Shown: positions 8,211 to 27,847 of the stretch, piece by piece
How positions within the stretch are numbered: the first letter of the stretch is position 1
Layout of the letters: each line of letters opens with the position of its first letter
Virus record (IMG/VR): IMGVR_UViG_3300025425_000009
Location: 11,658 to 75,657 of that record
From: a virus
Length of the DNA: 64,000 bases
Strand: one strand, 5' to 3'
Made by a program: the position numbers and the translations under genes
The notes under the pieces: generated by a model
Told to the model about the DNA's origin: nothing
Databases searched by the model: none
Seen by the model: only the letters and a program-made list of their open reading frames with translations

Positions 8211-8516
8211 ATGGTCACATTAAAAGACAGAACAACAGGAGAAGAGTATCCTCTTGAAGATGATAATATCCACAAGTACTGGAATGAGCAAACTGCCTAC
8301 AAAGGTTCTGTGTTTGTCATTGAGCCTCACTTCGAGGTTGAAAAATACGACAAGTTTGCTATGCTAGTAAAAGATAACACAGAAGAGCCAGTATGGATTT
8401 GCTTCAATAGGGCAACAATCGAGAAGGAAAGTACAAGAGAGCACATTACAGGATTGTTCAAGGACAACCCATTTTATCGGATTCATATATCAGATCATGA
8501 CTCAAGACAAACTTAG
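8211..8516 (+). CDS. hypothetical protein
   Basis: packed ORF. Confidence 0.6.
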   Translation: MVTLKDRTTGEEYPLEDDNIHKYWNEQTAYKGSVFVIEPHFEVEKYDKFAMLVKDNTEEPVWICFNRATIEKESTREHITGLFKDNPFYRIHISDHDSRQT

Positions 8517-8907
8517 CCACATGCTCCAGTTACAGTCGGAGTTTCAAAAGAACTTCTACGACATTGCAACACTTGCTGATGCAGATAGAGTAAGACAAAC
8601 AAAAGAGAACATGCTAGCACTACATAGGGAATTAGGTGAGGCACTAAACGAGATGCCGTGGAAACACCACAGGGCAAACTCACAGTCCTATGATATTACA
8701 AAGGTGCAGGAAGAACTCATAGATTGTATTAAGTTCATGATGAACATTTGTTTGCTGTGGGGACTTGATGCAGATACAATGTACTCCAAATTCGTTGAGA
8801 AAACACGTGTTGTGCAAACTCGGTATGACAAGGAGAAGGACAGGATACCGACTGCATTAGACAGTAACAGCACCAAGATGGGGTACAACACAGACCTCAA
8901 GAACTAA
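8497..8907 (+). CDS. All-alpha NTP pyrophosphatase (dimeric dUTPase/dCTPase family)
   Basis: ELGEALNEMPWKHH...EELIDCIKF. Confidence 0.8.
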   Translation: MTQDKLSHMLQLQSEFQKNFYDIATLADADRVRQTKENMLALHRELGEALNEMPWKHHRANSQSYDITKVQEELIDCIKFMMNICLLWGLDADTMYSKFVEKTRVVQTRYDKEKDRIPTALDSNSTKMGYNTDLKN

Positions 8908-8908
8908 A

Positions 8909-8956
8909 GTTATTAACAGGCATACGGTGTACACTGTTGCACTTAGTGATTATAAT
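8909..8956 (+). promoter_or_regulatory. Boxed promoter, probably producing a leaderless mRNA
   Basis: GTTATTAACAGG, TGTACA-17-TATAAT; ATG 6 nt after the -10. Confidence 0.75.
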
Positions 8957-8962
8957 AGACAT

Positions 8963-9877
8963 ATGACAAATCGACAAACTGATCAGCAGGAACTTCACAA
9001 TAAAGAATCAGCCGTGGCGGAATCTGCGTTTAGAGAAATCTACACCAGGCTAAGCCACCTTGGTGTTGAAGTTGCCCCTCGCGGTTATAAGGTTCTGGAA
9101 TGTGAGGACTTCTCATTCCTGCTACCTAAGTATGTCAGGTTTGCCAATTTCCAAGTACGAAAACTCAACCTAGATTACATCAAGGCTGAGTTTCTTTGGT
9201 ATTTGAACGGCGACCCTGGTAACACCCGGATAGGCAAGTATGCATCAACATGGAACCCACTCATCAATCCTGACGGAACAATCAACTCTAACTACGGGCA
9301 GTACATCTTCGGACAACAGGACCAGTTCGCAATAACAAGACAAACCCTAAGGGATGACAAAGACTCAAGACGTGCTTCAATTGTTATTCTGTCTCAGGCC
9401 CACCTGGCTTCTGACACAAAGGATGTGCCTTGCACTTACTCTATCAACTTTAGGATCAGGGATAACAAGCTAAACATGAGTATACGCATGAGATCCCAAG
9501 ATGCAATATTCGGGTTTGGTAACGACACACCTTGTTTTAGTCTAGTACATGAGATGATGTACATGAGCCTTAAGGCGGATTATCCTGATCTTGAGCATGG
9601 ATCATACCATCATACTGCTGATTCCTTCCATGTGTATGAACGTCATTTTGCCATGTTCCACGCCATCACTGCAGGTGGCCTAAGCAAGGCAAAGTATGAG
9701 CACATCGCAATTCCTAAGATATCCTCCCATGCGGAAGTTGAATTCCTAAGAACAGGGGATTTCTCTCATATACCAGATGAGTATGAGTTTTCAAAGTGGC
9801 TAACATTTTTCGAGAACGAGAAGTACAAAGATGCGTTAGCTGATCTAGGCAAGCCTACTAATATGACATTGTTCTAA
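8963..9877 (+). CDS. dCMP hydroxymethylase (T4 gp42-like, thymidylate synthase fold)
   Basis: INSNYG, catalytic PCT, MRSQDAIFGFGND with Asp at the base-specificity position. Confidence 0.82.
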   Translation: MTNRQTDQQELHNKESAVAESAFREIYTRLSHLGVEVAPRGYKVLECEDFSFLLPKYVRFANFQVRKLNLDYIKAEFLWYLNGDPGNTRIGKYASTWNPLINPDGTINSNYGQYIFGQQDQFAITRQTLRDDKDSRRASIVILSQAHLASDTKDVPCTYSINFRIRDNKLNMSIRMRSQDAIFGFGNDTPCFSLVHEMMYMSLKADYPDLEHGSYHHTADSFHVYERHFAMFHAITAGGLSKAKYEHIAIPKISSHAEVEFLRTGDFSHIPDEYEFSKWLTFFENEKYKDALADLGKPTNMTLF

Positions 9878-9878
9878 T

Positions 9879-10103
9879 ATGAAGTACGTGATAACAGAGC
9901 ACAAAGACTTCGCAATATTCAGTGAGGTAACAACACATAGTGAGATAGGACACACTCTTTTTGGAGCACCCACAAGTGCAGGATTCTGCCATTTTGATGA
10001 CCTGTCAAAGACAATGCAATGCTACGGACAAAGTGTAAGCATAGGCATTGGCAGTAGACCTGACGACAGTGACTTCCTTACCAGCAAACTAACGGACAAC
10101 TAA
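9879..10103 (+). CDS. hypothetical phage protein
   Basis: SAGFC and YGQSVSIGIGSR motifs. Confidence 0.65.
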   Translation: MKYVITEHKDFAIFSEVTTHSEIGHTLFGAPTSAGFCHFDDLSKTMQCYGQSVSIGIGSRPDDSDFLTSKLTDN

Positions 10104-10104
10104 C

Positions 10105-10866
10105 ATGATATACAAACTAGTGTTCATAGATACAGAGACGACTGGCCTTACTGACGATGTCAATGCCAGGCTACTGCAGGTAGCTTACACAGTAGGAACA
10201 AAACAGGTTGACGAAATGTACCTGCCTCCTGTGGAGATAGGTGCTGGAGCTATGGCAGTTCACAAGATCACTCCTCAGATGGTGGAGTCAAAGCCAGAGT
10301 TCAGAGGTTCACCAGAACACAAGGAGTTGGTTCGACTGTTTAAACAAAAGAAGAACGTGTTTGTTGCACACAACGCTGCATTTGATGTTGAAATGATAGA
10401 GCGTGAAGGTGTGGATATTGTTTCAGTGTTGTGCACCAAGCGGTTGGCCCAGACGCTAATGCCGCTTGCTGAGCATGCCGCACTAGCAAATCACAAACTA
10501 CAAACGTTAAGAGAGTATTTTGGTATTGAGCTTAAAGATGCACGTGCCCATGATGCGTTAGGCGATGTGCTGGTCATGGTCGAGGTTTTCAAAGAACTAT
10601 ACAAGATAGCAAAGGGGAAAGCAAATGCCAAAGCAGTCACACTTGGCAGAGTAAAATACACAAAAGATGAAATCTTAGAAAGAATGATCGAATTGTCAAG
10701 TGGACCTGTCCCACCAGACAGCCCAATGCCTTTCGGTAAACATGCAGGAACCTCCCTTAGAGATCTTGTAACAAACGAGCGCAGCTACTGTGAGTGGCTA
10801 CTTAGAAACACAGATGACAGTGGAGGAGTTAACCCAACACTAAGGGCATTACTAAATCGAAACTAA
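10105..10866 (+). CDS. DEDDh 3'-5' exonuclease with a C-terminal MPFGKH domain
   Basis: FIDTETTG, AHNAAFD, AHDALGD. Confidence 0.9.
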   Translation: MIYKLVFIDTETTGLTDDVNARLLQVAYTVGTKQVDEMYLPPVEIGAGAMAVHKITPQMVESKPEFRGSPEHKELVRLFKQKKNVFVAHNAAFDVEMIEREGVDIVSVLCTKRLAQTLMPLAEHAALANHKLQTLREYFGIELKDARAHDALGDVLVMVEVFKELYKIAKGKANAKAVTLGRVKYTKDEILERMIELSSGPVPPDSPMPFGKHAGTSLRDLVTNERSYCEWLLRNTDDSGGVNPTLRALLNRN

Positions 10867-10870
10867 TATT

Positions 10871-13504
10871 ATGTCAAAACCAGATTACTCAAACATTAAC
10901 GCACTGACCGCATGGGATGAAGGCAAGGACATTAAGATTGCTTGCAAAATCAAGGATGATAAAACAGGGAACTGGTCGCGTGGTGTCAAGACTATATCTG
11001 GGTTTGAATGGTACTTCGCCCTTAGCGCCAAGGATGTGGAAAAGAAGGTAGTCAAACTACTCATAAACAACTACTACGATAAAGGTGTGGTTGTGCGTAT
11101 TGAGGATTACAAGGACGACTGGGTCAAGGTGTACTGCAACAAAGAATCAACTGATGTAAGGTACGGCACAGGTACAAGTTCCAACGTTAAGTATCTGATC
11201 CAGGACTTGAAAAGGGAAGGAGTTGTATTGTATGAGTCTGACCTTTCTATGTGGAAGCGATTCTGCATTGATAACAAAATTGATGTTGCAGGTAATCTTG
11301 ATATACTTTACTTCGATATTGAGACAGATGACACCCATGACGGTATAGAGATTGGTGCACACACTATTCTTTCTTGGGCAGCTATGAACTCCAACGGTGA
11401 TGAGTTCTTCTGGCTTAACGAGGAATCTACCGGAGGAGAACCTGGGCTGCTGAAAGGGTTCCTGAACCTAATGACAGATCATGACCTTATATCAGGTTGG
11501 AATTCAGGAGGGTTTGACCTACCTTATATACAAGGAAGGCTAGAGTTTCACAACATAGACCCAGGCGATATGTTCAAAAAGAAACTGCACATAGATCTTA
11601 TGCAAAGATGTGCAAAGGTGTACAGCTATGAAATGTTTAACATTGGCTTGAAAGGTTTCTCCTTGAATGAAGTGTCCAGGGTGTTCCTTGGCGCACAAAA
11701 GGTTGAGCATGAGGAAGGCATTATGGAGATGTATCTCAACAACCCAGAACTCCTTGAAGAGTATAACAGACAAGATGTTAAGCTACTGTTTGACTTGGAC
11801 AACAAACTCCTAATCACTGATTTGATGATCAAGGAGTGTCAGTGGACAGGTGCGTTCCTGGATAGGTTCTACATTGGCGAGTTGCTTGATAACTATATAT
11901 TGAGACGTACTCATGAAATGGGGTTCTTCCAACACGCTAGGCCTGATTGGAATGAGAAACAGTCCTTAGACAACATCTCTATTCGTGGAGGGTTTGTTAT
12001 GGCACCTGTACCAGGTGTTTATGATGGTGTTAGAGTATTCGATTTCAAATCACTGTACCCGTCAATCATGGTGGGGTTCAATATAGGACGTGATTCACTC
12101 AACAAGGAACTGTCAGATCATGGGTTTGTAGCTATGTCACAGTTTCTTAGAACAGGCACTAAGGACGAGATCAAGGTTGAACTAGTTGATTTTGGCCAGT
12201 GGAAAGCATTCCTAGAATCAGAGAAAGCAAGGTTGGATCCTAAAGATGAGCACATACAAACAGCCAACAACGCATTCTTTTCCAAAAGTAAGATATCATT
12301 CGTCGGTGACCTTGTTCAGCACCTATTGAATCTTAGGGCAGACTGGAAAGCACAGGCAAAAGGGATGGACAAAGATGATCCTGAGTATGTTAACATCCAG
12401 CAGTCACAAGGTATTGTGAAGGAGATGGCTAACTCTATGTATGGTATCACAGGTGACAAGGGTAGTCGCTACTTTGATCAGAGTGTTGCAGAGGCTATCA
12501 CCTTGACAGGTCAGTTCCTCAACCGTTTGTCATCTCACTTTGCACAGAGGCACGGGTACTCAACAATCTACGGAGATACTGACTCCATCTTTGTGCCTAT
12601 CGCTAGTGATGAAGGTACAACCTCCTTAGTTGCGAAGGTAGAGGCTGATCTTAAGGAGTACTTGGAAAGTCATGTCGGTGTTACCAACAACATCATAGAA
12701 CTTGAGTATGAAAAGAAGTTTAGCAGAATGATCATGCTAGATAAGAAGCGGTATGCTGGTAAGATGGTGCTGTACGATGGGTATGCTACTGATAAAATAT
12801 TTTCACGCGGTACAGAGAACATCAAAAAGAACACAATTAGAATCACCCGTGAAGCGTTGGTTGAGCTAATCCACTGGGTGGTTGATGATGATACTGACAT
12901 TTCAGTAGCTAAGGCAAAGACGTGGGTTGAATCACTTATGAGTAAGATGCTTAACGATGATATAGATCCAGATGATCTTAACATGATTATCAAGGTGTCG
13001 AAACCACCATCTAAGTACAAATCAAAGCCACTCCACGTCAGGCTAGCAGAACGGCTGATCAATGCTGGTATGTTACCACCTATCATAGAAGGAAAGAGGT
13101 CGTGGGGTACAAGACTAGATTACATAGTGGTCAAAGATCCTGAGACAGGTAAACAAGAAGGTATACTTCGTGAAGAGTGGGCAGGTGTTTGGGACAGGCA
13201 ATACTACTGGGAGGTGCAAGTGTACGCACCTATCAGGCGGTTCCTAGAGGTTGTGTTTCCTAGTGAGGACTGGGGGATCTACTCCATTGAGGAGCAGGAC
13301 AAAATCAAGAGAAAGAAGGACAGGGAGGAATCGAAGATACTCAAGTTTATAGATCTAGAAGAAAAGAGAAAGACAAGGCATATCAAAAAAGCAGAGATGA
13401 CTGCAAAGAAACAGAAGGCCCTTGAGGATAAGGAAAAGGCAAAGAATGAAAAGCGCCGTAACGCGATATTGGCCAAGATCAATAAGACCAAAGAGGCAAG
13501 CTAA
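10871..13504 (+). CDS. polB: Family B DNA polymerase
   Basis: FDIET, FDLPY, DFKSLYPS, KEMANSMYG, YGDTDS, KKRY. Confidence 0.95.
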   Translation: MSKPDYSNINALTAWDEGKDIKIACKIKDDKTGNWSRGVKTISGFEWYFALSAKDVEKKVVKLLINNYYDKGVVVRIEDYKDDWVKVYCNKESTDVRYGTGTSSNVKYLIQDLKREGVVLYESDLSMWKRFCIDNKIDVAGNLDILYFDIETDDTHDGIEIGAHTILSWAAMNSNGDEFFWLNEESTGGEPGLLKGFLNLMTDHDLISGWNSGGFDLPYIQGRLEFHNIDPGDMFKKKLHIDLMQRCAKVYSYEMFNIGLKGFSLNEVSRVFLGAQKVEHEEGIMEMYLNNPELLEEYNRQDVKLLFDLDNKLLITDLMIKECQWTGAFLDRFYIGELLDNYILRRTHEMGFFQHARPDWNEKQSLDNISIRGGFVMAPVPGVYDGVRVFDFKSLYPSIMVGFNIGRDSLNKELSDHGFVAMSQFLRTGTKDEIKVELVDFGQWKAFLESEKARLDPKDEHIQTANNAFFSKSKISFVGDLVQHLLNLRADWKAQAKGMDKDDPEYVNIQQSQGIVKEMANSMYGITGDKGSRYFDQSVAEAITLTGQFLNRLSSHFAQRHGYSTIYGDTDSIFVPIASDEGTTSLVAKVEADLKEYLESHVGVTNNIIELEYEKKFSRMIMLDKKRYAGKMVLYDGYATDKIFSRGTENIKKNTIRITREALVELIHWVVDDDTDISVAKAKTWVESLMSKMLNDDIDPDDLNMIIKVSKPPSKYKSKPLHVRLAERLINAGMLPPIIEGKRSWGTRLDYIVVKDPETGKQEGILREEWAGVWDRQYYWEVQVYAPIRRFLEVVFPSEDWGIYSIEEQDKIKRKKDREESKILKFIDLEEKRKTRHIKKAEMTAKKQKALEDKEKAKNEKRRNAILAKINKTKEAS

Positions 13505-13549
13505 CTGTTAACAACTTCAGTGTACACATCGTAACTTAAGTAATATAAT
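13505..13549 (+). promoter_or_regulatory. Boxed promoter (box inverted), probably leaderless
   Basis: CTGTTAACAAC, TGTACA-17-TATAAT, ATG at 13556. Confidence 0.72.
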
Positions 13550-13555
13550 CAACAT

Positions 13556-14092
13556 ATGAAAGCAAACAAAACACAAACAATCATAATTATGGAAGGTGCA
13601 GACATGATGGGAAAGACAAGTATAGGTGCAGCACTGTCAAACAAGCTTGATGTTCCTATTGTCAAGATGACTCGTAGTGAGAAGTGGTTTGACCCTATGA
13701 TAGACCTGATGTATGCAGGTGAAACCCACTGCCAGCTGGCTCAGCAAACAGGGTATGACTTTATCTACGATAGACTGTTTCCTAGTGAGTATGCATACAG
13801 TAGAGCGTACCAACGATCCACATCACATGAAAAGATAATTTCCATTGATGCTCGTTATGCAAAGATGGGGGCACTTGTAGTTGTGTGTTTCAAGGATCCT
13901 AAAGCGTATCAAGAAGATGACAAAGGCATCATCGACGTTGCAAAATACAGTCAGCTTACAGAGTGGTACAAGGAATTCAAGAAACTGTCTAAGTGTGAAG
14001 TACTCATGCTTGACACAACAGAGGAAAACCTAGAGGACCAGTTAAAACAAATACAGGAGGCATTAGAAACAGCACAAGCTAAAGTAAAATAA
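13556..14092 (+). CDS. dNMP (thymidylate-like) kinase
   Basis: MEGADMMGKTS P-loop, YDRLFPSEYAY. Confidence 0.85.
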   Translation: MKANKTQTIIIMEGADMMGKTSIGAALSNKLDVPIVKMTRSEKWFDPMIDLMYAGETHCQLAQQTGYDFIYDRLFPSEYAYSRAYQRSTSHEKIISIDARYAKMGALVVVCFKDPKAYQEDDKGIIDVAKYSQLTEWYKEFKKLSKCEVLMLDTTEENLEDQLKQIQEALETAQAKVK

Positions 14093-14094
14093 AT

Positions 14095-14817
14095 ATGAAG
14101 TCACTTCTCAACGATGATACAGCGCAGTATCTTAAAAAAATAGATTATACAAGCACATGGAGTGTTGGCCATCATTACAGGTTCCTACTATTTGCTAATT
14201 ACGTAGTTAAATCTGGTGCCAAGAAGGTGCTTGATGTAGGATTCGGAAAAAACATGCTGATTCATTATCTAATAGATGCTGGGTTTGATGGCGAGTATAT
14301 TGCAGTGGACATCAATCAGGACTACATTGATGCAGGACAGCAGGAATGGGATTCTGAGATCAGTAAGAGGGATGGTTGTGAGTGCAGTGCACAATACGTG
14401 TTCGGGGAAACAGTAAACATGGAGGTCGACGTTGTTGTGCTTGGTGAGTTTGTGGAACACATCCCAAAGGACACAGTCAAAGACGTTCTTGCAGGGTACA
14501 GGAAGCAACTAACTGATGGTGGATCAGTTATTATTTCCACACCTAACAAGCATAACGGTGAACTAAACTGGCCGGACGATCATGAGGATGAGTTTGAGTT
14601 AGACGAACTCCTTGAGGTAGTAGCTGGGAGTGGCCTTGTATCTCACCAAGTTGTAGGGTATTGGAACAACACAGCAGGTGTCAAATCACACCTAACTAAG
14701 GAGCAGTTGGCTACGTACGAAAATGATGCTGCGTATCTACCAGCATCTTTACTAAACGTACAGCACTGTTTGTCATACCCACGGGATTCAAGGGCAGTAA
14801 TTGTAATTGCAAAATAA
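14095..14817 (+). CDS. Class I SAM-dependent methyltransferase
   Basis: VLDVGFG, AVDIN, EFVEHI, IISTPN. Confidence 0.85.
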   Translation: MKSLLNDDTAQYLKKIDYTSTWSVGHHYRFLLFANYVVKSGAKKVLDVGFGKNMLIHYLIDAGFDGEYIAVDINQDYIDAGQQEWDSEISKRDGCECSAQYVFGETVNMEVDVVVLGEFVEHIPKDTVKDVLAGYRKQLTDGGSVIISTPNKHNGELNWPDDHEDEFELDELLEVVAGSGLVSHQVVGYWNNTAGVKSHLTKEQLATYENDAAYLPASLLNVQHCLSYPRDSRAVIVIAK

Positions 14818-14818
14818 C

Positions 14819-15196
14819 ATGGGAATGCATTTTGATGTAGCAGTATACAGCAAGACAAAGTTTCGTGAATCACTCAAGGAAACACACAGTGATGACAATG
14901 CCAAGGTCGTCATGGCAGCTGTAGAAGCTGCGTCAGCAGGGGATGACAGTGTGTTTGCACTTCTTGCATGTGAATACTGGGATGACTATAACCCAAGGTG
15001 GGAACTACCAAGACTCATACAGGCGTTGGCGATTGATGTGACAACCTACGATGGTGTGGAGGAACTTGACAAATACAGCATAGGCACCAACCACCAAGCG
15101 TTCAACGCTGAGGAGTGGTACAGCGATAACACTGGTAAGTCGTTACCTGCTCATCCATACGACGATGACTATGATGATGATAAAGATATTAACTAA
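14819..15196 (+). CDS. hypothetical acidic protein
   Basis: packed ORF; ATG follows the upstream stop. Confidence 0.55.
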   Translation: MGMHFDVAVYSKTKFRESLKETHSDDNAKVVMAAVEAASAGDDSVFALLACEYWDDYNPRWELPRLIQALAIDVTTYDGVEELDKYSIGTNHQAFNAEEWYSDNTGKSLPAHPYDDDYDDDKDIN

Positions 15197-15205
15197 CTTA
15201 TACTT

Positions 15206-16150
15206 ATGAAAATTGGAATCTACAAACCGTTCAAGAAAGTGTACTTTCATGATGACAAAGAAGACAACGCAGCATGGAGTTTTGAGGTAACAACAGTTGC
15301 CAAGATATTAGCAAGGCAAGGGCACAAGGTCAGTATGTTGAGTGACACTGATCTTAGGGATGGCGCGTTTATTAACATAGACACATCTGGGCTGAATGAG
15401 ATATATGACAGGATCATACTGTTCAGCGGTACATTTTCACTTGATAAAGAAGGTGAAGGAATCATAGACATTCTAAAAGGACTTACTCCTCGCCTAGACT
15501 TCATGCTCACCGATCTTCGTCTTGTACCAGAGGATAAGTCAAAATATGAGATGTTTGACACTATCTACACCCAGGCTACCAAGCCTATAGAGTCAATAGG
15601 CCACTTAGCAAAACAAAAGTATGGTGCTATCTCAGAGTTTATACTTTACAAGCATGAATGGGACCTGTCGACTGAAGAAATGAATGCAAACAAGAGCACT
15701 ACATTTTATTTCGGAGGCACTGAACGCGGTAGACTGGACGACTTCATTGAGTATGTGTGGAGACCGAACCATGTTATCACAACTAAAAGTGCGTTCTTTC
15801 AAACTGAAAACAGGGTTAACCGTCACGAATACATGAAACTGTTAGATGACACAAAGTACAGTATTGTTATTGCTGATGTTGATTACAACGAAAACAGCTT
15901 CATCACACCCAGACCTTACGAGTACTACATTCATGATATAGTAGCGTTTGTGGATTCCAAGTTTGATCCTGATGGTCACATCGTACCAGTCAACGACTGG
16001 TGTAGAGTGTCCAGCTTTAAAGAGATGCAGGTAAAAATAAATTACCTTGAAGAGAATGAGGAAGAACGAATGCAGTTGCTAATGAAGCAGCGACTTGTAA
16101 TAACCGATGAACACATCACTGGGTCTTATGTCTATGAAACCATCAAATAA
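15206..16150 (+). CDS. DNA beta-glucosyltransferase homologue (T4 BGT family)
   Basis: motifs colinear with T4 BGT: MKIGI, YDRII, LTDLRL, YFGGTER, IVIADVDYNENSFITPRPYE, FVDSKFD. Confidence 0.82.
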   Translation: MKIGIYKPFKKVYFHDDKEDNAAWSFEVTTVAKILARQGHKVSMLSDTDLRDGAFINIDTSGLNEIYDRIILFSGTFSLDKEGEGIIDILKGLTPRLDFMLTDLRLVPEDKSKYEMFDTIYTQATKPIESIGHLAKQKYGAISEFILYKHEWDLSTEEMNANKSTTFYFGGTERGRLDDFIEYVWRPNHVITTKSAFFQTENRVNRHEYMKLLDDTKYSIVIADVDYNENSFITPRPYEYYIHDIVAFVDSKFDPDGHIVPVNDWCRVSSFKEMQVKINYLEENEEERMQLLMKQRLVITDEHITGSYVYETIK

Positions 16151-16727
16151 GCAAGTATCACTTGACAGAGTACACTTGGCATATCACAAAAGATATGCTG
16201 TCACCTACCCTGACTTTGATCTTGGTTTTTTTAACGGGAACAGTATTCTGTTTGTGTCAGATGCACCTCTTAAGCAGAGTGTTACTAGGATAGTTAGTGT
16301 TCCTAACGAAGACACACTCAAGGCTGCTGACATTGATTCGAGCACTCGTGTGCTTAACTCTAGTGTAGGTCACGTTATAAAAGGTGTGGCACCTGGGCAA
16401 TGGGATACGATATCTTGCACAAGTGTTCACAAGACACAGGGCCATGAAGACAGACCTGCCTTGAACTCAGAAAGAGGTGAGGAGTTTGAGATCCTTCTCA
16501 ATCAGATCAAGTACCTACAGCCTAACCTGATTATTCTGCTAGGAGAGATAACAGGTCTTCGTTTCCACGTAGAAGAGTATTATGAACTTAGACTGTACGA
16601 CGGAAAAAGTATAGTAATGATGATACCGGACGATCTGGAATCAGAAAAATCTATCCTTAGGGCTAAGCTAGCGGTCATGGACGCAAGCGAATACTATGCA
16701 TTATCAGGTCTTAACAAAATTGTATGA
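16107..16727 (+). CDS. degenerate uracil-DNA glycosylase-fold protein
   Basis: ILFVSDAP and QIKYLQPNLIILLG resemble family-4 UDG; no terminal HP motif. Confidence 0.55.
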   Translation: MNTSLGLMSMKPSNKQVSLDRVHLAYHKRYAVTYPDFDLGFFNGNSILFVSDAPLKQSVTRIVSVPNEDTLKAADIDSSTRVLNSSVGHVIKGVAPGQWDTISCTSVHKTQGHEDRPALNSERGEEFEILLNQIKYLQPNLIILLGEITGLRFHVEEYYELRLYDGKSIVMMIPDDLESEKSILRAKLAVMDASEYYALSGLNKIV

Positions 16728-17029
16728 AATTAAGAAACCCATTCACTGCTGAAAATAGAGAGCTGTTCAGATATAAGTACGATTGTGATGTATGCGGAAT
16801 GAGTGGAGTGGATGCACTCCATCATATTCTTGGAAGAGTGTCAAGCTCTCCACTTAACGCGTCAACTGTGCATAACCATAAATGCCATATCGGTAACTAT
16901 GCACTGGACTCGTTTGACACACAGGCAAGGCTACTTAAAAACACACTGCAGTATCTGTTACAGGAAGGGTATGTGCTGACACCAGCAGACGTTCAATTTC
17001 AGGCTGATTATGCACTGTACTATGCCTAA
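16724..17029 (+). CDS. HNH-like nuclease
   Basis: CDVCG..DALHHILGR..N..HNHKCH. Confidence 0.65.
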   Translation: MKLRNPFTAENRELFRYKYDCDVCGMSGVDALHHILGRVSSSPLNASTVHNHKCHIGNYALDSFDTQARLLKNTLQYLLQEGYVLTPADVQFQADYALYYA

Positions 17030-17564
17030 CAATAAACACAGCAGTAAACTAAAGTTTGGGCTTCTTGCTGAGGACTACTTCCTTCAAGCTGCTGCAGCTC
17101 AACTCAAGGATCACTTTCCATGGGTTAGTGTTTTAGAGAGACGGTCTACAGCTGAGCGTTGTAGAGTTACAAAAGACACTTTCTCAGAAGTAGATGCCAA
17201 GATCACAGTGGACAGGTGCGGCAAGGCTCCGTACTCCACACTCATGGATTTCAAGACAACGTCTGATCCAAAACATAAATACTCAAAACATAAAGCAGGC
17301 TGGTATGGAGGAACACTCCTTATGAGCCACGCTTGCCACAATGCAATGATACGTCGTGACAACTCAATGCTGTTTGTTCTATTCATGGGAGATGGCCACC
17401 CTGTGATAGAGGTGTTTGACTATTGCAAGTTGGAACAGTTTGGGCCAGAGATGATACAAGGTAATTCAAAACACAGGGTAGGGTTTTCAGATAATGCAAG
17501 AGTGGACCGCATGTATGTAAACACCACAGCAGAGTTTTTATCAATATCTAAGATACTATTATGA
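17010..17564 (+). CDS. putative PD-(D/E)XK endonuclease
   Basis: GLLAE...VDA...MDFKT. Confidence 0.45.
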   Translation: MHCTMPNNKHSSKLKFGLLAEDYFLQAAAAQLKDHFPWVSVLERRSTAERCRVTKDTFSEVDAKITVDRCGKAPYSTLMDFKTTSDPKHKYSKHKAGWYGGTLLMSHACHNAMIRRDNSMLFVLFMGDGHPVIEVFDYCKLEQFGPEMIQGNSKHRVGFSDNARVDRMYVNTTAEFLSISKILL

Positions 17565-17794
17565 TTACAGTAAACGACCTGATAACAGTTCTAAAGACAC
17601 TGCCTAAGACAGCAGTAGTTCTAGTAGACTCAGATCAAGAAGGTAACAACACCATGACCATGTACGGAGTTAGCACAGGGTTTGCAGATACAAGTGAGCA
17701 TGGGAGTATAGATGTTTATTCAAAGGAAGACCTTGCTGACAACGACATGAAGTCAGACGACCTCAGTGAGTGTGTTGTAATACTGCCAGGTTAG
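17561..17794 (+). CDS. hypothetical phage protein
   Basis: MITVNDLI..L..LP..DQEGN pattern. Confidence 0.65.
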   Translation: MITVNDLITVLKTLPKTAVVLVDSDQEGNNTMTMYGVSTGFADTSEHGSIDVYSKEDLADNDMKSDDLSECVVILPG

Positions 17795-17795
17795 T

Positions 17796-18233
17796 ATGAC
17801 ATATTCAGATAACAACACGGAGCAAAAGGTGGTGATGGTGTCAGGTGGGTTTGACCCTGTACATGTGGGGCATTTACGAATGTTTGAAGAAGCCAGCAGG
17901 CTAGGTACCTCATTGATTGTTGTGCTAAATTGTGATGACTGGTTGACAAGAAAGAAAGGGAAAGCATTCATGTCACAGACAGAAAGGAAGGAGCTAATAG
18001 AAGGGTTTCGGTGTGTTGACAGAGTAGAGATCCTGCAGTCAGATCATGACCATGTGTGTGAGGCCCTTCGTAAATACAGACCAGATGTGTTTGCAAACGG
18101 AGGTGACAGAAAAAGTGATAACACTCCGGAGTACAGAGTGTGTGCCAGTCTCAAGATAGAGATGGCATTTGATGTAGGGCATGGAGGCAAGGTGCAGTCA
18201 AGTTCAGAGATGTTAAAGAATTACAATGGCTAA
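17796..18233 (+). CDS. Cytidylyltransferase-family (HxGH) nucleotidyltransferase
   Basis: SGGFDPVHVGH, FANGGDR, KVQSSS. Confidence 0.9.
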   Translation: MTYSDNNTEQKVVMVSGGFDPVHVGHLRMFEEASRLGTSLIVVLNCDDWLTRKKGKAFMSQTERKELIEGFRCVDRVEILQSDHDHVCEALRKYRPDVFANGGDRKSDNTPEYRVCASLKIEMAFDVGHGGKVQSSSEMLKNYNG

Positions 18234-18714
18234 GCAATATCTAGGCATTGACGGAGGTCATGCTGGAGCACTAACTGTAATAGAAGGTGACTCTGTAGTT
18301 GAAAAGATTGTCATGCCTATTCAAAAAACATCTGCTAGCAGGAATGAGTACAACTGCTTTGATATAATAACTTTTCTGAACAAGTACCCTGATGCCACAG
18401 TAGTGTTTGAAAAGGCACACGCTATGCCACAGCTTGGGTCTGTTCAGGCATTTAACTTCGGCAAGGGGTTTGGCATGATGATAGGTATCCTCACTGCCTT
18501 AAAAATGAAGTTTCATATTGTGCATGCAAAGACATGGCAATCTGAAATGTTCAAAGATCTACCTAAGCAAGACACAAAAGCTATGAGTTGCATGGTGGCA
18601 CAGCGACTGTTTCCTAGCGAAGACTTTACTCCTACAGAGCGTAGCAACAAACTACATGACGGGTTTACTGACTCTGTGTTACTAGCTGAGTTTGGTAGAC
18701 GCAGAAACTTATAA
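18226..18714 (+). CDS. RuvC-like Holliday junction resolvase
   Basis: LGIDGG, VFEK, FNFGKGFG, HDGFTDSVL. Confidence 0.8.
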   Translation: MAKQYLGIDGGHAGALTVIEGDSVVEKIVMPIQKTSASRNEYNCFDIITFLNKYPDATVVFEKAHAMPQLGSVQAFNFGKGFGMMIGILTALKMKFHIVHAKTWQSEMFKDLPKQDTKAMSCMVAQRLFPSEDFTPTERSNKLHDGFTDSVLLAEFGRRRNL

Positions 18715-19625: not shown

Positions 19626-21095
19626 ATGACAAGATTTAACAAACCACAGCAGAATACTACGGAAAACCATGAAGGGTCCACAGCATTCATGCATTCACCT
19701 GAATTGCAGCTGTATTCGTTGGTTGTGACTTGCATGGTCAGTGATAAGTTTTACGAATCATCTGATGATCAACTGGTTCGACTAAGAGGTCTTCTACCTA
19801 CAGTAGACCCTAAGTTTGCTGTACAACTTGCAATTTATGCTAGAGAAGAGATGCATCTAAGAACAATACCTCTTGTTCTAATGATAGAGCTAGCCAGGAT
19901 CCACTCAGGTGACAACCTTGTTTCCCAAGGTGTTGGTAGAGTGATTCAGAGGGTTGATGAAATAACAGAAATGCTTGCGTATTACTGTGCTGCTAACAAC
20001 CGTAATGATGTTGCTCCGTTGTCTAAGCAAATTCAGAAGGGGTTACAGGTGGCGTTTAACAAGTTCAATCACTACCAGTTTGCCAAGTACAACAGGCCTG
20101 GTAAGGTGACACTTAAAGATGCACTGTTCATTGTTAGACCGAGCAGTGATACGTTCAAGCAGTCAGAAGTGTTTGCAATGATTGCATCAGGCACGCTTGG
20201 ATCAGCAGACACATGGGAAACCTCTCTGTCCTCAGGGCTAGATAAGAAAGAAGCATGGGAGGAGTTAATCATGAATGACAAGCTTGGTTACATGGCCATG
20301 ATGAGAAACCTAAGAAACTTCGTACAGGCAGGCATCTCTAAGGATGCACTAGTTAAGGTGTGCCAATTCATATCTGCTAAGGAACGGGTACTTGCGTCTA
20401 AGCAACTCCCATTTAGATTCTACTCAGCGTATAGAATGTTGAAAGAGGTGGAAGGTGACGGGGTGACGATGATCCTAGACTCTCTGAATAAGGCAGTCAA
20501 GCATTCAATAGCCAACATACCTTTTTTCAGTGAAACCGAAAGTGTCATGATTGCATGTGACGTATCTGCATCAATGATGGTGCCTCTGTCTGACAAGAGC
20601 GTAGTTGAGTATTACGATGTAGGTCTCCTTCTTGGGTCTTTACTTCAGGCCAACTCCAACTTCGTCCAGACAGGACTGTTCGGAGATACATTCAAGGTGT
20701 ACCCAATGGCATCCACCAACATACTGGAGAATGCTTGCCAGCTAAGAAGGTGTGAAGGCGATGTAGGTTACGCTACAAACGGTCACACTGTTATTGAGTA
20801 TCTGACCCAGACAGGTAAGAGTGTTGACAAAGTCGTTATGTTTACTGACTGTCAGATGACTGATTCATCATACGACGGACGTGCCCTTAGTGCAGCTTGG
20901 AACCAGTACAAAACACAACACCCTAACTCCAAATTATACATTTTCAACTTGTCAGGCTATGGCAAGGAAGTGTTCTCACAACATGCCAATGACATTTTTC
21001 AAGTGGCTGGTTGGAGTGAAAAAATATTTGATATGCTTCATTCGTTGGAATCAGGGGACTCAGTTATTTCAACAATTCAAAAAATTAGTATATAA
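19626..21095 (+). CDS. rsr: Ro60/Rsr (TROVE + vWA) RNA-binding protein
   Basis: YAREEMHLRT, QFAKYNR, TWET, LGYMAMMRNLRN, SKQLPFRFYSAY, vWA MIDAS DVSAS and FTD. Confidence 0.93.
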   Translation: MTRFNKPQQNTTENHEGSTAFMHSPELQLYSLVVTCMVSDKFYESSDDQLVRLRGLLPTVDPKFAVQLAIYAREEMHLRTIPLVLMIELARIHSGDNLVSQGVGRVIQRVDEITEMLAYYCAANNRNDVAPLSKQIQKGLQVAFNKFNHYQFAKYNRPGKVTLKDALFIVRPSSDTFKQSEVFAMIASGTLGSADTWETSLSSGLDKKEAWEELIMNDKLGYMAMMRNLRNFVQAGISKDALVKVCQFISAKERVLASKQLPFRFYSAYRMLKEVEGDGVTMILDSLNKAVKHSIANIPFFSETESVMIACDVSASMMVPLSDKSVVEYYDVGLLLGSLLQANSNFVQTGLFGDTFKVYPMASTNILENACQLRRCEGDVGYATNGHTVIEYLTQTGKSVDKVVMFTDCQMTDSSYDGRALSAAWNQYKTQHPNSKLYIFNLSGYGKEVFSQHANDIFQVAGWSEKIFDMLHSLESGDSVISTIQKISI

Positions 21096-22249: not shown

Positions 22250-22822
22250 ATGATAATCTACACCAGGAAAAAAGAAATACAGTTTGCACAGACCTCAAGT
22301 GAAATAGAAGGAGAACTCTCTGAAAGTGCATGGCAGGACCATCTTGATGCGTGGGACTTCCTTAAGGAAACTGATACCGTGTCTTTGCATGATCTGTTAG
22401 AATGCCACTACGGGCTGCAAATACGGCTGAGACCTGACATTGCCGGTAAGTTTAGAACATGCAATGTTAGGGTCGGCTCCCACATAATGCCTCATTATGC
22501 CAGTGTTGTAGCAATGACACGCGCATGGCTGCGTAAGTGGACAGGCAGCAAGTTGCCTAAGACTGAGGAAGAGTGTAGGACTGCTCATATAGAGTTTGAG
22601 AATATACACCCCTTTGAAGATGGCAACGGTAGAGTAGGCCGGTGTATACTGAATTGGCACAGGCGTAAGCTAAACCTGCCGATTCTGATTATCCATGTAG
22701 GTGAAGAGCAGCAGGCATATTACGGCTGGTTCAAAGAGGCACAAAACAGTGATGCACTTTATAAAACACTAGGCAGTGACTGTGTCAGATCCTACACAAA
22801 GAAGTTTACCAAAAAGAGATAA
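22250..22822 (+). CDS. Fic-domain protein
   Basis: intact HPFEDGNGRVGR motif. Confidence 0.9.
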   Translation: MIIYTRKKEIQFAQTSSEIEGELSESAWQDHLDAWDFLKETDTVSLHDLLECHYGLQIRLRPDIAGKFRTCNVRVGSHIMPHYASVVAMTRAWLRKWTGSKLPKTEEECRTAHIEFENIHPFEDGNGRVGRCILNWHRRKLNLPILIIHVGEEQQAYYGWFKEAQNSDALYKTLGSDCVRSYTKKFTKKR

Positions 22823-27277: not shown

Positions 27278-27847
27278 ATGCAAACATTCGTACACTCCCC
27301 AGATGTCCACACAATTGTAAAGCAACTAGATAAAAAGAGGTTGTTCAAACAGACAGTAGAAACATTTCAGCTTATGAAAGCCATAGCAGGTCTCTACGCC
27401 AAAAGAGATGATGCAGGCACTGTAATTAAAGATGGGTGGAGCTCACACCCTGCAGCCAATATGTGGCGAGGTCATACCTATGCACTTCTATGTTACCAGG
27501 AGTTGTGTGTTAATGAGTGTATTGCACGAGGCATCAACTATTCAAGCCCTAATGTGTACGAAAAAACCAAAGCTGTATATGACGAGTATTTAACAGGCGG
27601 TGACCTTAACCCTCCAGCTTGGTGGGGTGATGAAAGAGTGCATGGCACACACCGTGCTAACCTACTACGCAAAGACTTAGAAGACAGAGAAAAGCAGTTA
27701 GCAAAAGGCAAAGATCATGTGTTGCAATACCACAGCTTTGGCTGGTCTGAAAAACCGTATAACATTGATGGCACTCAAACTGAGTATATATGGCCAGTAG
27801 ACAAGACTGGGCAAATGTCATTCTACTCTGTTGAACGAAAAAAATAG
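27278..27847 (+). CDS. pyrimidine dimer DNA glycosylase-like protein (DenV/Pyr_excise family)
   Basis: MQTF, LDKKRLFKQ.VE, HPAANMWRGH, PAWWGD..H..HRANLLRKD. Confidence 0.8.
   Translation: MQTFVHSPDVHTIVKQLDKKRLFKQTVETFQLMKAIAGLYAKRDDAGTVIKDGWSSHPAANMWRGHTYALLCYQELCVNECIARGINYSSPNVYEKTKAVYDEYLTGGDLNPPAWWGDERVHGTHRANLLRKDLEDREKQLAKGKDHVLQYHSFGWSEKPYNIDGTQTEYIWPVDKTGQMSFYSVERKK

Follow-up and report, generated by a model that had tools for sequence, protein, structure and literature searches.

A candidate pathway to glycosylated 5-hydroxymethylcytosine in an uncultured siphovirus-like phage, with a Hen1-like methyltransferase gene beside the glycosyltransferase

Introduction

Phage T4 makes glucosyl-5-hydroxymethylcytosine (glucosyl-hmC) with the enzymes gp56, gp42, gp1 and the DNA beta-glucosyltransferase (BGT), and this base has been treated as a hallmark of the T-even phages. 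Here we describe a locus, from a phage unrelated to T4, that encodes a thymidylate synthase (TS)-fold enzyme related to gp42 and a glycosyltransferase related to BGT. The locus lies at positions 8497-18233 of a 64 kb stretch of viral DNA, hereafter the window, which represents positions 11,658 to 75,657 of virus record IMGVR_UViG_3300025425_000009 (75,657 bp in full); all coordinates are those of the window unless a locus number precedes them. In the literature that we searched, no BGT-type transferase was described outside T4-like phages, nor were any methylated sugars on DNA.

A second kind of cytosine modification has been described in phages whose TS homologues make 5-hydroxy-dCMP (5hodCMP) and not 5-hydroxymethyl-dCMP (5hm-dCMP) (PMC13326640, 2026). 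In these phages a kinase, a transferase and the TS homologue are encoded as a module, which comprises genes 78-79-80 in DLP3, 45-46:47-48 in RB69 and 214-215-216 in RL38J1, and the top structural match of the DLP3 'nucleotide kinase', gp78, is YorR (3kb2) (PMC13326640). The same study provides diagnostic residues, numbered as in ThyA: C146 is catalytic, N177D goes with a cytosine substrate and L143D/E with a product other than the methylated one, and D169N is the mark of the 5-hydroxy makers, separating enzymes for 5-hydroxymethylcytosine (5hmC) from those for 5-hydroxycytosine (5hoC) (PMC13326640).

Two enzymes that do not belong to either system also have a bearing on the locus. In plant HEN1 a metal ion, liganded by Glu796, Glu799, His800 and (Asp859-)His860, binds the 2',3'-diol of the terminal ribose (PMC10781085). 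Brig1 is a bacterial defence glycosylase that excises alpha-glucosyl-hmC, and its best structural match is reported to be the family-4 uracil-DNA glycosylase (UDG) of S. tokodaii (PMC11078745).

An earlier, sequence-only reading of the window proposed a T4-like route to glycosylated hmC outside T4, elaborated by extra tailoring enzymes. Sequence, fold, diagnostic residues and conserved gene linkage uphold the route itself, and we consider it probable that cytosine in this phage is replaced by 5hmC to which a sugar is subsequently attached, a T4 strategy carried out with partly different enzymes. Among the proposed tailoring enzymes, a Hen1-like methyltransferase retains a plausible place and a nucleotidyltransferase does not.

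Results

Synthesis of the modified nucleotide

All of the genes that the sequence-only reading had called across 8497-18233 are present there on the + strand. Those on which the argument turns are as follows.

8497-8907, + strand, all-alpha NTP pyrophosphatase, dUTPase_2 / MazG-like (Pfam PF08761, E 5.7e-12, 46.7 bits against a cut-off of 22.9)
8927-9877, + strand, TS-fold enzyme with a 5hm-dCMP synthase (T4 gp42-type) signature
10871-13504, + strand, family B DNA polymerase, PolB (Pfam DNA_pol_B, E 6e-46)
13556-14092, + strand, YorR / thymidylate-kinase-like P-loop nucleotide kinase
14095-14817, + strand, Hen1-like class I S-adenosylmethionine (SAM) O-methyltransferase, catalytic domain only, 240 aa
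15206-16150, + strand, DNA beta-glucosyltransferase-family (T4 BGT-like, GT-B) glycosyltransferase

The genome has a single TS-fold gene, at 8927-9877, and genome-wide searches for ThyX and dCMP deaminase found neither. The solved structure closest to the TS-fold enzyme is T4 dCMP hydroxymethylase (E 3.2e-18), followed by MilA, a CMP hydroxymethylase (E 3e-16); true thymidylate synthases reach E 3e-9 at best, approximately nine orders of magnitude worse than gp42. Its RSQD..FGFGND motif aligns with RSND..FGFRND of gp42. We examined the diagnostic positions in an alignment of ten sequences (A2). Related loci contributed five of these and the cultured phages RsoM2USA and Effie one each, and the window enzyme, T4 gp42 and RB69 gp48 complete the set. 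Cys169, which is invariant in A2 and stands opposite gp42 C148 (E. coli ThyA C146), is the catalytic cysteine; Asp166, three residues ahead of it, occupies the L143D position, as in gp42; Asp200, within FGFGND, occupies the N177D position opposite gp42 D179, in a column marked by the D179N mutant entry 6l18; and Asp192, within MRSQD, retains D169, where RB69 gp48 alone in the alignment has Asn (MRSQN). All four positions are likewise kept in seven of the seven other relatives aligned (the five loci, RsoM2USA and Effie). Because Cys169, Asp166, Asp200 and Asp192 match gp42 and D169N is absent, the published criteria class the enzyme as a 5hm-dCMP synthase and not as a 5hodCMP synthase. The gp42-type assignment first made from the sequence alone is therefore borne out both by the search of solved structures and by this stricter residue test.

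The wider family includes several forms that we record here. At L014:2040-3698 (loci are given by our own L numbers) the homologue is a single frame of 552 aa with an in-frame insert of 262 residues exactly at the catalytic cysteine; the insert starts with a cysteine (Cys155), and a second one afterwards (Cys418) opens the conserved CTYSINF segment. Within a few kb of the transferase in three other loci (L002:11558-12547, L024:6907-7818 and L025) stands a second TS-fold subfamily, about 29% identical to the window enzyme when mapped onto the loci (25-28% in A2 for L002 and L024) and bearing an extra C-terminal extension of roughly 70-100 residues; its L002 and L024 members keep the signature in A2, and L025 is a fragment outside the alignment. 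Among cultured phages, homologues annotated as hypothetical occur in Ralstonia phage RsoM2USA (L027:5986-6822, 57% identity) and Acinetobacter phage Effie (L026:6944-7753, ~40%). In both, Asp occupies the L143, D169 and N177 positions, which is the 5hmC-type signature. Two homologues outside A2, from Acinetobacter phage HHU4 and Xanthomonas phage Xp15, are ~41% and ~38% identical to the window enzyme, respectively. The tblastn matches of the transferase include none of these four phages.

The kinase that follows PolB belongs to a family with the P-loop EGxDxxGK(T/S) and a DR motif, in which G14, D16, G19, K20, D72 and R73 are invariant. Its profile, built from 12 relatives, matches SPbeta YorR best among solved structures (2axp, E 3.4e-9, 6-158 against 2-154), followed by dGK and Tmk, and the kinase is related to RB69p045 by hhalign (probability 95%, E 1.9e-8). 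The sequence-only reading had called a dNMP kinase by reference to T4 gp1. The P-loop nucleotide kinase stands; the likeness to gp1 was rejected in favour of YorR and thymidylate kinase, since hhalign of kinase profile A3 with gp1 gave a probability of 2%, confined to the P-loop. A gp1 homologue was sought in the genome and none was found. The kinase is the genome's only candidate for phosphorylating 5hm-dCMP. We presume from the conserved linkage described below that it does so, as a functional analogue of gp1. No match to the kinase was obtained by tblastn in isolated phages.

The pyrophosphatase matches phrog_173, NTP pyrophosphohydrolase (E 1.7e-14), and belongs to dUTPase_2, a family that we take, from its Pfam description, to include T4 gp56. 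A sequence search for solved relatives returned none. Homologues adjoin PolB or the kinase in L004 and L017, and from this context the enzyme is presumed to be a dCTPase/dUTPase that drains dCTP and supplies dCMP, as an analogue of gp56.

Transfer of the sugar

Searched as a single sequence against solved structures, the transferase matches no protein but T4 BGT, at a weak E of 0.002 and over the C-terminal part; a scan of viral contigs with the single protein found nothing. By tblastn its matches in isolates are bgt genes of T4-like phages only (E 1e-8, 87% coverage), and its relatives in a large protein collection form about 50 clusters at 34-67% identity, all of them metagenomic. With a profile of 25 relatives (A1), hmmsearch against the Protein Data Bank (PDB) retrieves T4 BGT at E 3.8e-12, over 25-297 against 20-333, and nothing else significant. 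The conserved residues E27, D103, R174, R176, R236 and E239 align with BGT E22, D100, R191, R195, R269 and E272, and are invariant in the 25 relatives save for D103 (>=90%). Within this set we take E22 to have the role assigned to it in BGT structure papers, and R191, R195, R269 and E272 to be the residues that bind UDP; D100 is the catalytic residue of BGT (10.1101/2023.12.21.572611).

An AlphaFold2 (AF2) model of the transferase (predicted local distance difference test, pLDDT, 95) gives a concordant picture, for ranks 1-6 of a Foldseek search of the PDB are all T4 BGT (E 1e-11 to 2e-8, TM 0.67-0.74) and BshA comes next at 3e-7. The protein is 18-25% identical to BGT; in Pfam, the T4 glucosyltransferase model is silent on it and the generic Glyco_trans_1_2 model matches at E 1e-5. 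Given the profile match, the six leading Foldseek matches and the conserved active-site residues, we assign the transferase to the true T4 BGT family by sequence, modelled fold and active site, as had been read from the sequence at the outset; its donor and acceptor would follow from that homology.

The sugar itself had been suggested to be something other than glucose. When we searched the genome for NTP_transferase, epimerase, GT2 and GT4 genes there were none, and there was no second transferase. Because this complete genome thus has neither sugar-nucleotide pathway genes nor another transferase, a common host donor is favoured over a non-glucose sugar of the phage's own making, and the likeliest donor is a host UDP-hexose, most simply UDP-glucose.

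Conserved neighbourhoods and the proposed route

The transferase profile retrieved 23 distinct loci, onto which the window proteins were mapped. In 14 loci the kinase is encoded 5' of the transferase (nine times immediately adjacent, five times separated by a short gap or a single gene), a TS-fold gene lies within a few kb of the transferase in seven (three of which, L002, L024 and L025, have the second subfamily), and PolB is on the same short stretch in eight. These counts define a conserved core of kinase and transferase with the TS-fold gene and PolB nearby, and the linkage of transferase to all three holds down to 34% transferase identity. Since the kinase is related to RB69p045 and to YorR, like those of the published clusters, the module is by homology common to 5hoC and 5hmC phages. 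The kinase and transferase genes had been called an operon that also carries the nucleotidyltransferase; the genes share the + strand, the operon is an assumption, and three small genes, one HNH-like and two unassigned, separate the UDG-like gene from the nucleotidyltransferase.

Taken together, these genes suggest the following route. The pyrophosphatase would hydrolyse dCTP and dUTP to provide dCMP, which the TS-fold enzyme, by its residue signature, is predicted to hydroxymethylate at C5. The YorR/Tmk-like kinase, judged by its linkage, would phosphorylate 5hm-dCMP, with host enzymes completing the triphosphate, and the phage PolB would incorporate the modified dCTP. After replication, the BGT-family transferase would move a hexose from a host UDP-sugar onto the hydroxymethyl group, a step for which homology, fold and active-site residues all argue and in which donor and acceptor are the predicted elements.

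Methylation of a sugar on DNA or of RNA

Between the kinase and the transferase lies the methyltransferase gene, whose product belongs to a small family confined to this phage group (7 clusters among 5.8 billion proteins). One of these clusters is on a contig of 161,306 bp, a length shared by the contig of transferase homologue P0008, and the two contigs are probably one. The top match of its profile (A5, 11 members) is the Hen1 methyltransferase domain of C. thermocellum (3jwi/3jwg, E 1.1e-8); human HENMT1, Anabaena Hen1 and plant HEN1 are matched further down, and PfPMT is close behind at 8.6e-8. EVIEH and STPNK of CthHen1 are aligned with the profile, the TPN motif following strand 5. The family conserves E118-x-x-E121-H122 and, 41 residues further on, D162-H163, except that the L015 member is without two of the ligands. 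Read from these motifs, the protein fits a metal and diol site of the HEN1 kind, ExxEH by alignment and D-H by motif and spacing. It matches positions 270-397 only of the 462-position bacterial Hen1 model and is without the N-terminal, partner-binding half, and it has a conserved N-terminal segment that is unique to the phage family. Look-alikes of its AF2 model (pLDDT 90) in the Atlas are phage methyltransferases.

In five of the five contexts in which it was seen (the window, L005, L015, L018 and L023) the methyltransferase gene adjoins that of the transferase, upstream in four and downstream in L018, and the transferases of the loci that bear it are 38-59% identical to that of the window. 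Together with the loci that lack the gene (below), this is the pattern of an accessory gene travelling with the transferase. No match was found by tblastn in isolated phages, and one distant methyltransferase locus, L030, has nothing else in common with the window.

The enzyme may therefore have the sugar as its substrate. That its target is one of the hydroxyls of the attached sugar, with O-methyl-glycosyl-hmC as the product, is a plausible if tentative proposal, and it is the part of the original tailoring hypothesis that we retain. More tentative again is the evolutionary form of the proposal, in which a Hen1-type, metal-dependent methyltransferase of sugar hydroxyls was recruited from the methylation of RNA 3' ends to the sugar attached to 5hmC by the BGT-like enzyme, so that some phages carry O-methyl-glycosyl-hydroxymethylcytosine.

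Genes associated with RNA repair occur elsewhere in the genome. RlaP (Pfam E 7e-25) and a T4 Rnl1-like RNA ligase (E 2e-16) are encoded ahead of the window, at L001:6576-7322 and L001:9712-10779, and within it are a Ro60/TROVE protein (E 5e-29, 19626-21095) and a Fic-domain protein (E 5e-13, 22250-22822).

The best-supported alternative draws on this context. On this view the modified base is unadorned glucosyl-hmC, like that of T4, and the methyltransferase is a true Hen1 that 2'-O-methylates RNA 3' ends as part of a kit for repairing tRNA and other RNA, its adjacency to the transferase being inherited synteny. The closest sequence relatives of the protein are indeed RNA 3'-end methylases with which it appears to share the metal-ligand motifs, the genome has the Rnl1-like ligase, RlaP, Ro60 and 20 tRNA genes, and a bacterial Pnkp1-Rnl-Hen1 repair complex is known (PMC4411300). 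The arrangement of the genes fits this alternative poorly, however, for the ligase is ~16 kb from the methyltransferase while the transferase adjoins it in all five contexts seen, on either side; moreover, the half of bacterial Hen1 that binds its partner is missing, and L016 has Ro60 yet no methyltransferase between PolB and Ro60. We regard a true Hen1 as less likely than methylation of the sugar, though a serious contender.

A number of points nonetheless weigh against the reading that we prefer, in which the product is hmC bearing a sugar that may be methylated. With regard to the methyltransferase, the D-H ligand pair comes from motif and spacing, with no alignment covering it; fold searches do not single out Hen1, since many class I methyltransferases score at Z 15-18 and HEN1 ranks sixth (Z 17.0); the gene is missing from seven or more related loci that are visible on both sides of the transferase; and the RNA ligase, RlaP and Ro60 of this genome are the usual company of an RNA-repair Hen1. 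With regard to the core of the pathway, the direct match of the pyrophosphatase to T4 gp56 is weak (E 0.002 in a single BLASTP comparison, including the ExxD helix), the substrate of the kinase is assigned from linkage, the modification and its extent are predicted from genes, and sequence does not specify the sugar or its anomeric linkage.

Other explanations of the core

Three further alternatives concern the base itself or the target of the transferase. The pathway could yield glycosylated 5hoC of the RB69, DLP3 and RL38J1 type, with which the locus shares the module of Tmk/YorR-like kinase, transferase and TS homologue; the kinase is related to RB69p045, and Acinetobacter phages are among the isolates with the closest homologues of the TS-fold enzyme. 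The diagnostic residue points the other way, since ThyA position 169 is Asp in the window enzyme and in eight other aligned sequences and Asn in RB69 gp48 only, and the transferase belongs to the BGT family, which we take to act on a hydroxymethyl group. We consider 5hoC very improbable here.

A shade less probable still is a phage that makes 5hmC and whose BGT-like enzyme glycosylates a host surface polymer or protein, or is inactive. Such a role would accommodate the silence of the Pfam T4 glucosyltransferase model and the low identity to BGT, but the residues that we take to be catalytic and UDP-binding are conserved, and in relatives as distant as 34% identity the gene remains tightly linked to those for the kinase, PolB and the TS-fold enzyme.

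The least probable of all is action of the TS-fold enzyme on dUMP (giving dTMP or 5hm-dUMP), with cytosine untouched and the transferase modifying 5-hydroxymethyluracil or something other than DNA, for which the thymidylate synthase label in Pfam and PHROG and the prevailing dUTPase annotation of the pyrophosphatase family speak, and against which stand Asp at the N177 and L143 positions in all nine aligned relatives and references and a match to true TS structures 1e9-fold worse than that to gp42.

Remaining genes of the locus

The other features at and around the locus are listed below.

329-2077, SNF2-family helicase that opens the replication block; its N-terminus matches HARP (annealing-helicase type) weakly, at 23.6 bits, just short of the cut-off of 25
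10105-10866, + strand, DnaQ-like 3'-5' exonuclease (Pfam RNase_T, E 1.7e-17; phrog_192, DNA polymerase exonuclease subunit, E 3.5e-49)
14807-15196, + strand, open reading frame (ORF) of 129 aa with a very acidic C-terminus and a TTG start overlapping the end of the methyltransferase gene
16107-16727, + strand, degenerate family-4 UDG-fold protein (pseudo-glycosylase)
16724-17029, + strand, small HNH-like protein, with homologues near the transferase in L005, L007, L016 and L018
17010-17564, small ORF with no usable Pfam match at E up to 1
17561-17794, small ORF with no usable Pfam match at E up to 1
17796-18233, + strand, cytidylyltransferase-like nucleotidyltransferase, RfaE domain II / TagD-like (Pfam CTP_transf_like PF01467, E 5e-15, 56.2 bits against 21)
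18226-18714, RuvC-like resolvase

The UDG-like gene follows that of the transferase and was first read as a degenerate UDG fold, a description that the family profile confirms. Profile A4 matches the S. tokodaii family-4 UDG among solved structures (4zbx, E 2.5e-11), and the Pfam UDG model fires in six of six family members, with a best E of 6.7e-15 and a value of only 0.093 for the window copy. The gene is directly 3' of the transferase in L002, L015, L016 and L022; the methyltransferase gene intervenes in L018, and in L011 the UDG-like gene is ~1.2 kb downstream. Motif A of family-4 UDGs is GE(A/G)PG. The relatives keep GQNPG at motif A, which we take to be nearer the MUG/SMUG type, together with TN and HPS, where the window copy has SDAPL, TS and a deletion of HPS. 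Because motif A, the base-reading Asn and HPS (motif B) have been lost, the window protein is unlikely to be a glycosylase and appears to be a catalytically dead relic. Apparently intact relatives, with GQNPG, TN and HPS, are found at L002:10969-11550, L016:4750-5355, L018:1301-1864, L011:4576-5223 and L022:1238-1822, and these could be active glycosylases, for instance on deaminated hmC or on unmodified DNA. By analogy with Brig1, it is conceivable that the UDG-like protein binds the modified base, for example as a shield or decoy against Brig1-like glycosylases.

The nucleotidyltransferase carries HVGH, an HxGH motif, and matches ECT and TagD in the PDB. Its NCBIfam scores, 72 bits for rfaE_dom_II (equivalog cut-off 181.5) and 58 bits for TagD (165.4), are both below the respective cut-offs. 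Phage homologues are found in cyanomyophages, at up to 46% identity, and among the related loci in L005 only, the nearest relative with a long flank. Members of the cytidylyltransferase family make CDP- or ADP-activated compounds, and not the UDP-sugars used by BGT-type enzymes. Its proposed membership of the pathway does not hold up, given a gene shared with the nearest relative only and a CDP/ADP chemistry set against a UDP-type transferase, and it probably lies outside the pathway.

The DnaQ-like exonuclease belongs to the replication context and is outside the modification chemistry. The ORF at 14807-15196 has no Pfam (E up to 1), PHROG or NCBIfam match and no homologue in the related loci; it may be no gene at all, or may encode a small DNA-mimic-like protein, and its membership of the pathway is doubtful. 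The small protein at 16724-17029 has no Pfam match, and its look-alikes in the Atlas carry HNH (feature score 0.94-0.95, TM 0.56-0.67), which is a lead only. A by-eye guess that 17010-17564 encodes a PD-(D/E)xK nuclease was dropped for want of Pfam support.

The phage and its source

CheckV rates the record as 100% complete. The left half is a + strand block of replication and nucleotide metabolism, and the right half a - strand module of terminase, portal, capsid, tape measure and endolysin. A T4 DenV-like pyrimidine-dimer DNA glycosylase (Pfam Pyr_excise, E 2e-16) is encoded among the tRNA genes at 27278-27847.

Isolated phages yielded no Megablast match to the region, and the best identity of portal, capsid and polymerase to isolates is ~28%, portal and polymerase having been compared with 50,697 isolated phage records. 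Because portal and polymerase are at most ~28% identical to those of isolated phages, we place the phage in a deep, uncultured, siphovirus-like lineage that is not T4-like (the sequence-only reading had likewise called a non-T4 siphovirus); a tape-measure tail module is present, and our search for a tail sheath was not exhaustive. Near-identical DNA occurs only in DNA runs of salt-lake metagenomes, as contigs, and no RNA run is listed with it.

A host from the candidate phyla radiation had been considered probable, and we found nothing in its favour: the phage RecA is 42-48% identical to that of bacteria of many phyla alike, and the source is salt-lake metagenomes. The transferase profile found nothing in 185,579 prokaryote genomes, and hence gave no clue to a prophage or host by that route.

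Discussion

The transferase defines a metagenomic lineage of about 50 clusters, found in salt lakes and in further metagenome collections. If a glycosyl-hmC base is built in this lineage with a kinase and a pyrophosphatase different from those of T4, then the pathway would be a modular one that either predates the T4 group or is more mobile than it; the module of kinase, transferase and TS homologue would, by the same token, extend from 5hoC phages to 5hmC phages. Two additions to this picture are testable, namely the Hen1-like methylase, which possibly decorates sugars on DNA, and the UDG-fold protein of the phage, whose fold is related to that of Brig1. O-methyl-glycosyl-hydroxymethylcytosine, if it is indeed made, would be a DNA hypermodification that we did not find described in the literature searched, and new DNA-glycan enzymes would be useful reagents for 5hmC mapping.

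Each of the described systems resembles the locus in part. The UDG-like family finds its best solved match in the S. tokodaii enzyme (4zbx/4zby), which is also the reported best structural match of Brig1; unlike Brig1 and the family-4 UDGs, the family is encoded by phages, adjoins the transferase gene and has GQNPG in the relatives or, in the window, lost motifs. The methyltransferase has in common with Hen1 and HENMT1 a class I SAM fold, the ExxEH motif, a D-H pair that would complete the metal site and the TPN motif after strand 5, whereas it consists of the catalytic domain alone, with no Pnkp- or RNA-binding domain, and its genomic partner is a DNA glycosyltransferase and not Pnkp.

With RB69, DLP3 and RL38J1 the locus shares the side-by-side arrangement of a Tmk/YorR-like kinase, a transferase and a TS homologue (PMC13326640), and YorR is both the top structural match of DLP3 gp78 (3kb2) and the top sequence match of the window kinase (2axp, the same sequence). 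Unlike the window enzyme, the TS homologues of these three phages carry D169N and make 5hodCMP with flavin, and their transferases are GT4-like and accompanied by encoded pathways for UDP-arabinose or UDP-galactofuranose (PMC13326640).

The likeness to T4 extends to the strategy as a whole, in which a TS-fold enzyme whose active-site signature is identical to that of gp42 would make 5hm-dCMP before replication and a BGT-family transferase would act afterwards, and to the placing of the hydroxymethylase and transferase genes near a family B polymerase, as with genes 43, 42 and b-gt. The two part company in their components and their setting. Here the genome is without alpha-glucosyltransferase and dCMP deaminase, the kinase is YorR/Tmk-like and not gp1-like, the pyrophosphatase is distant from gp56, and the genes are carried in a genome of 75.7 kb with a siphovirus-like virion module, where a Hen1-like methyltransferase and a UDG-like protein are the neighbours of the transferase.

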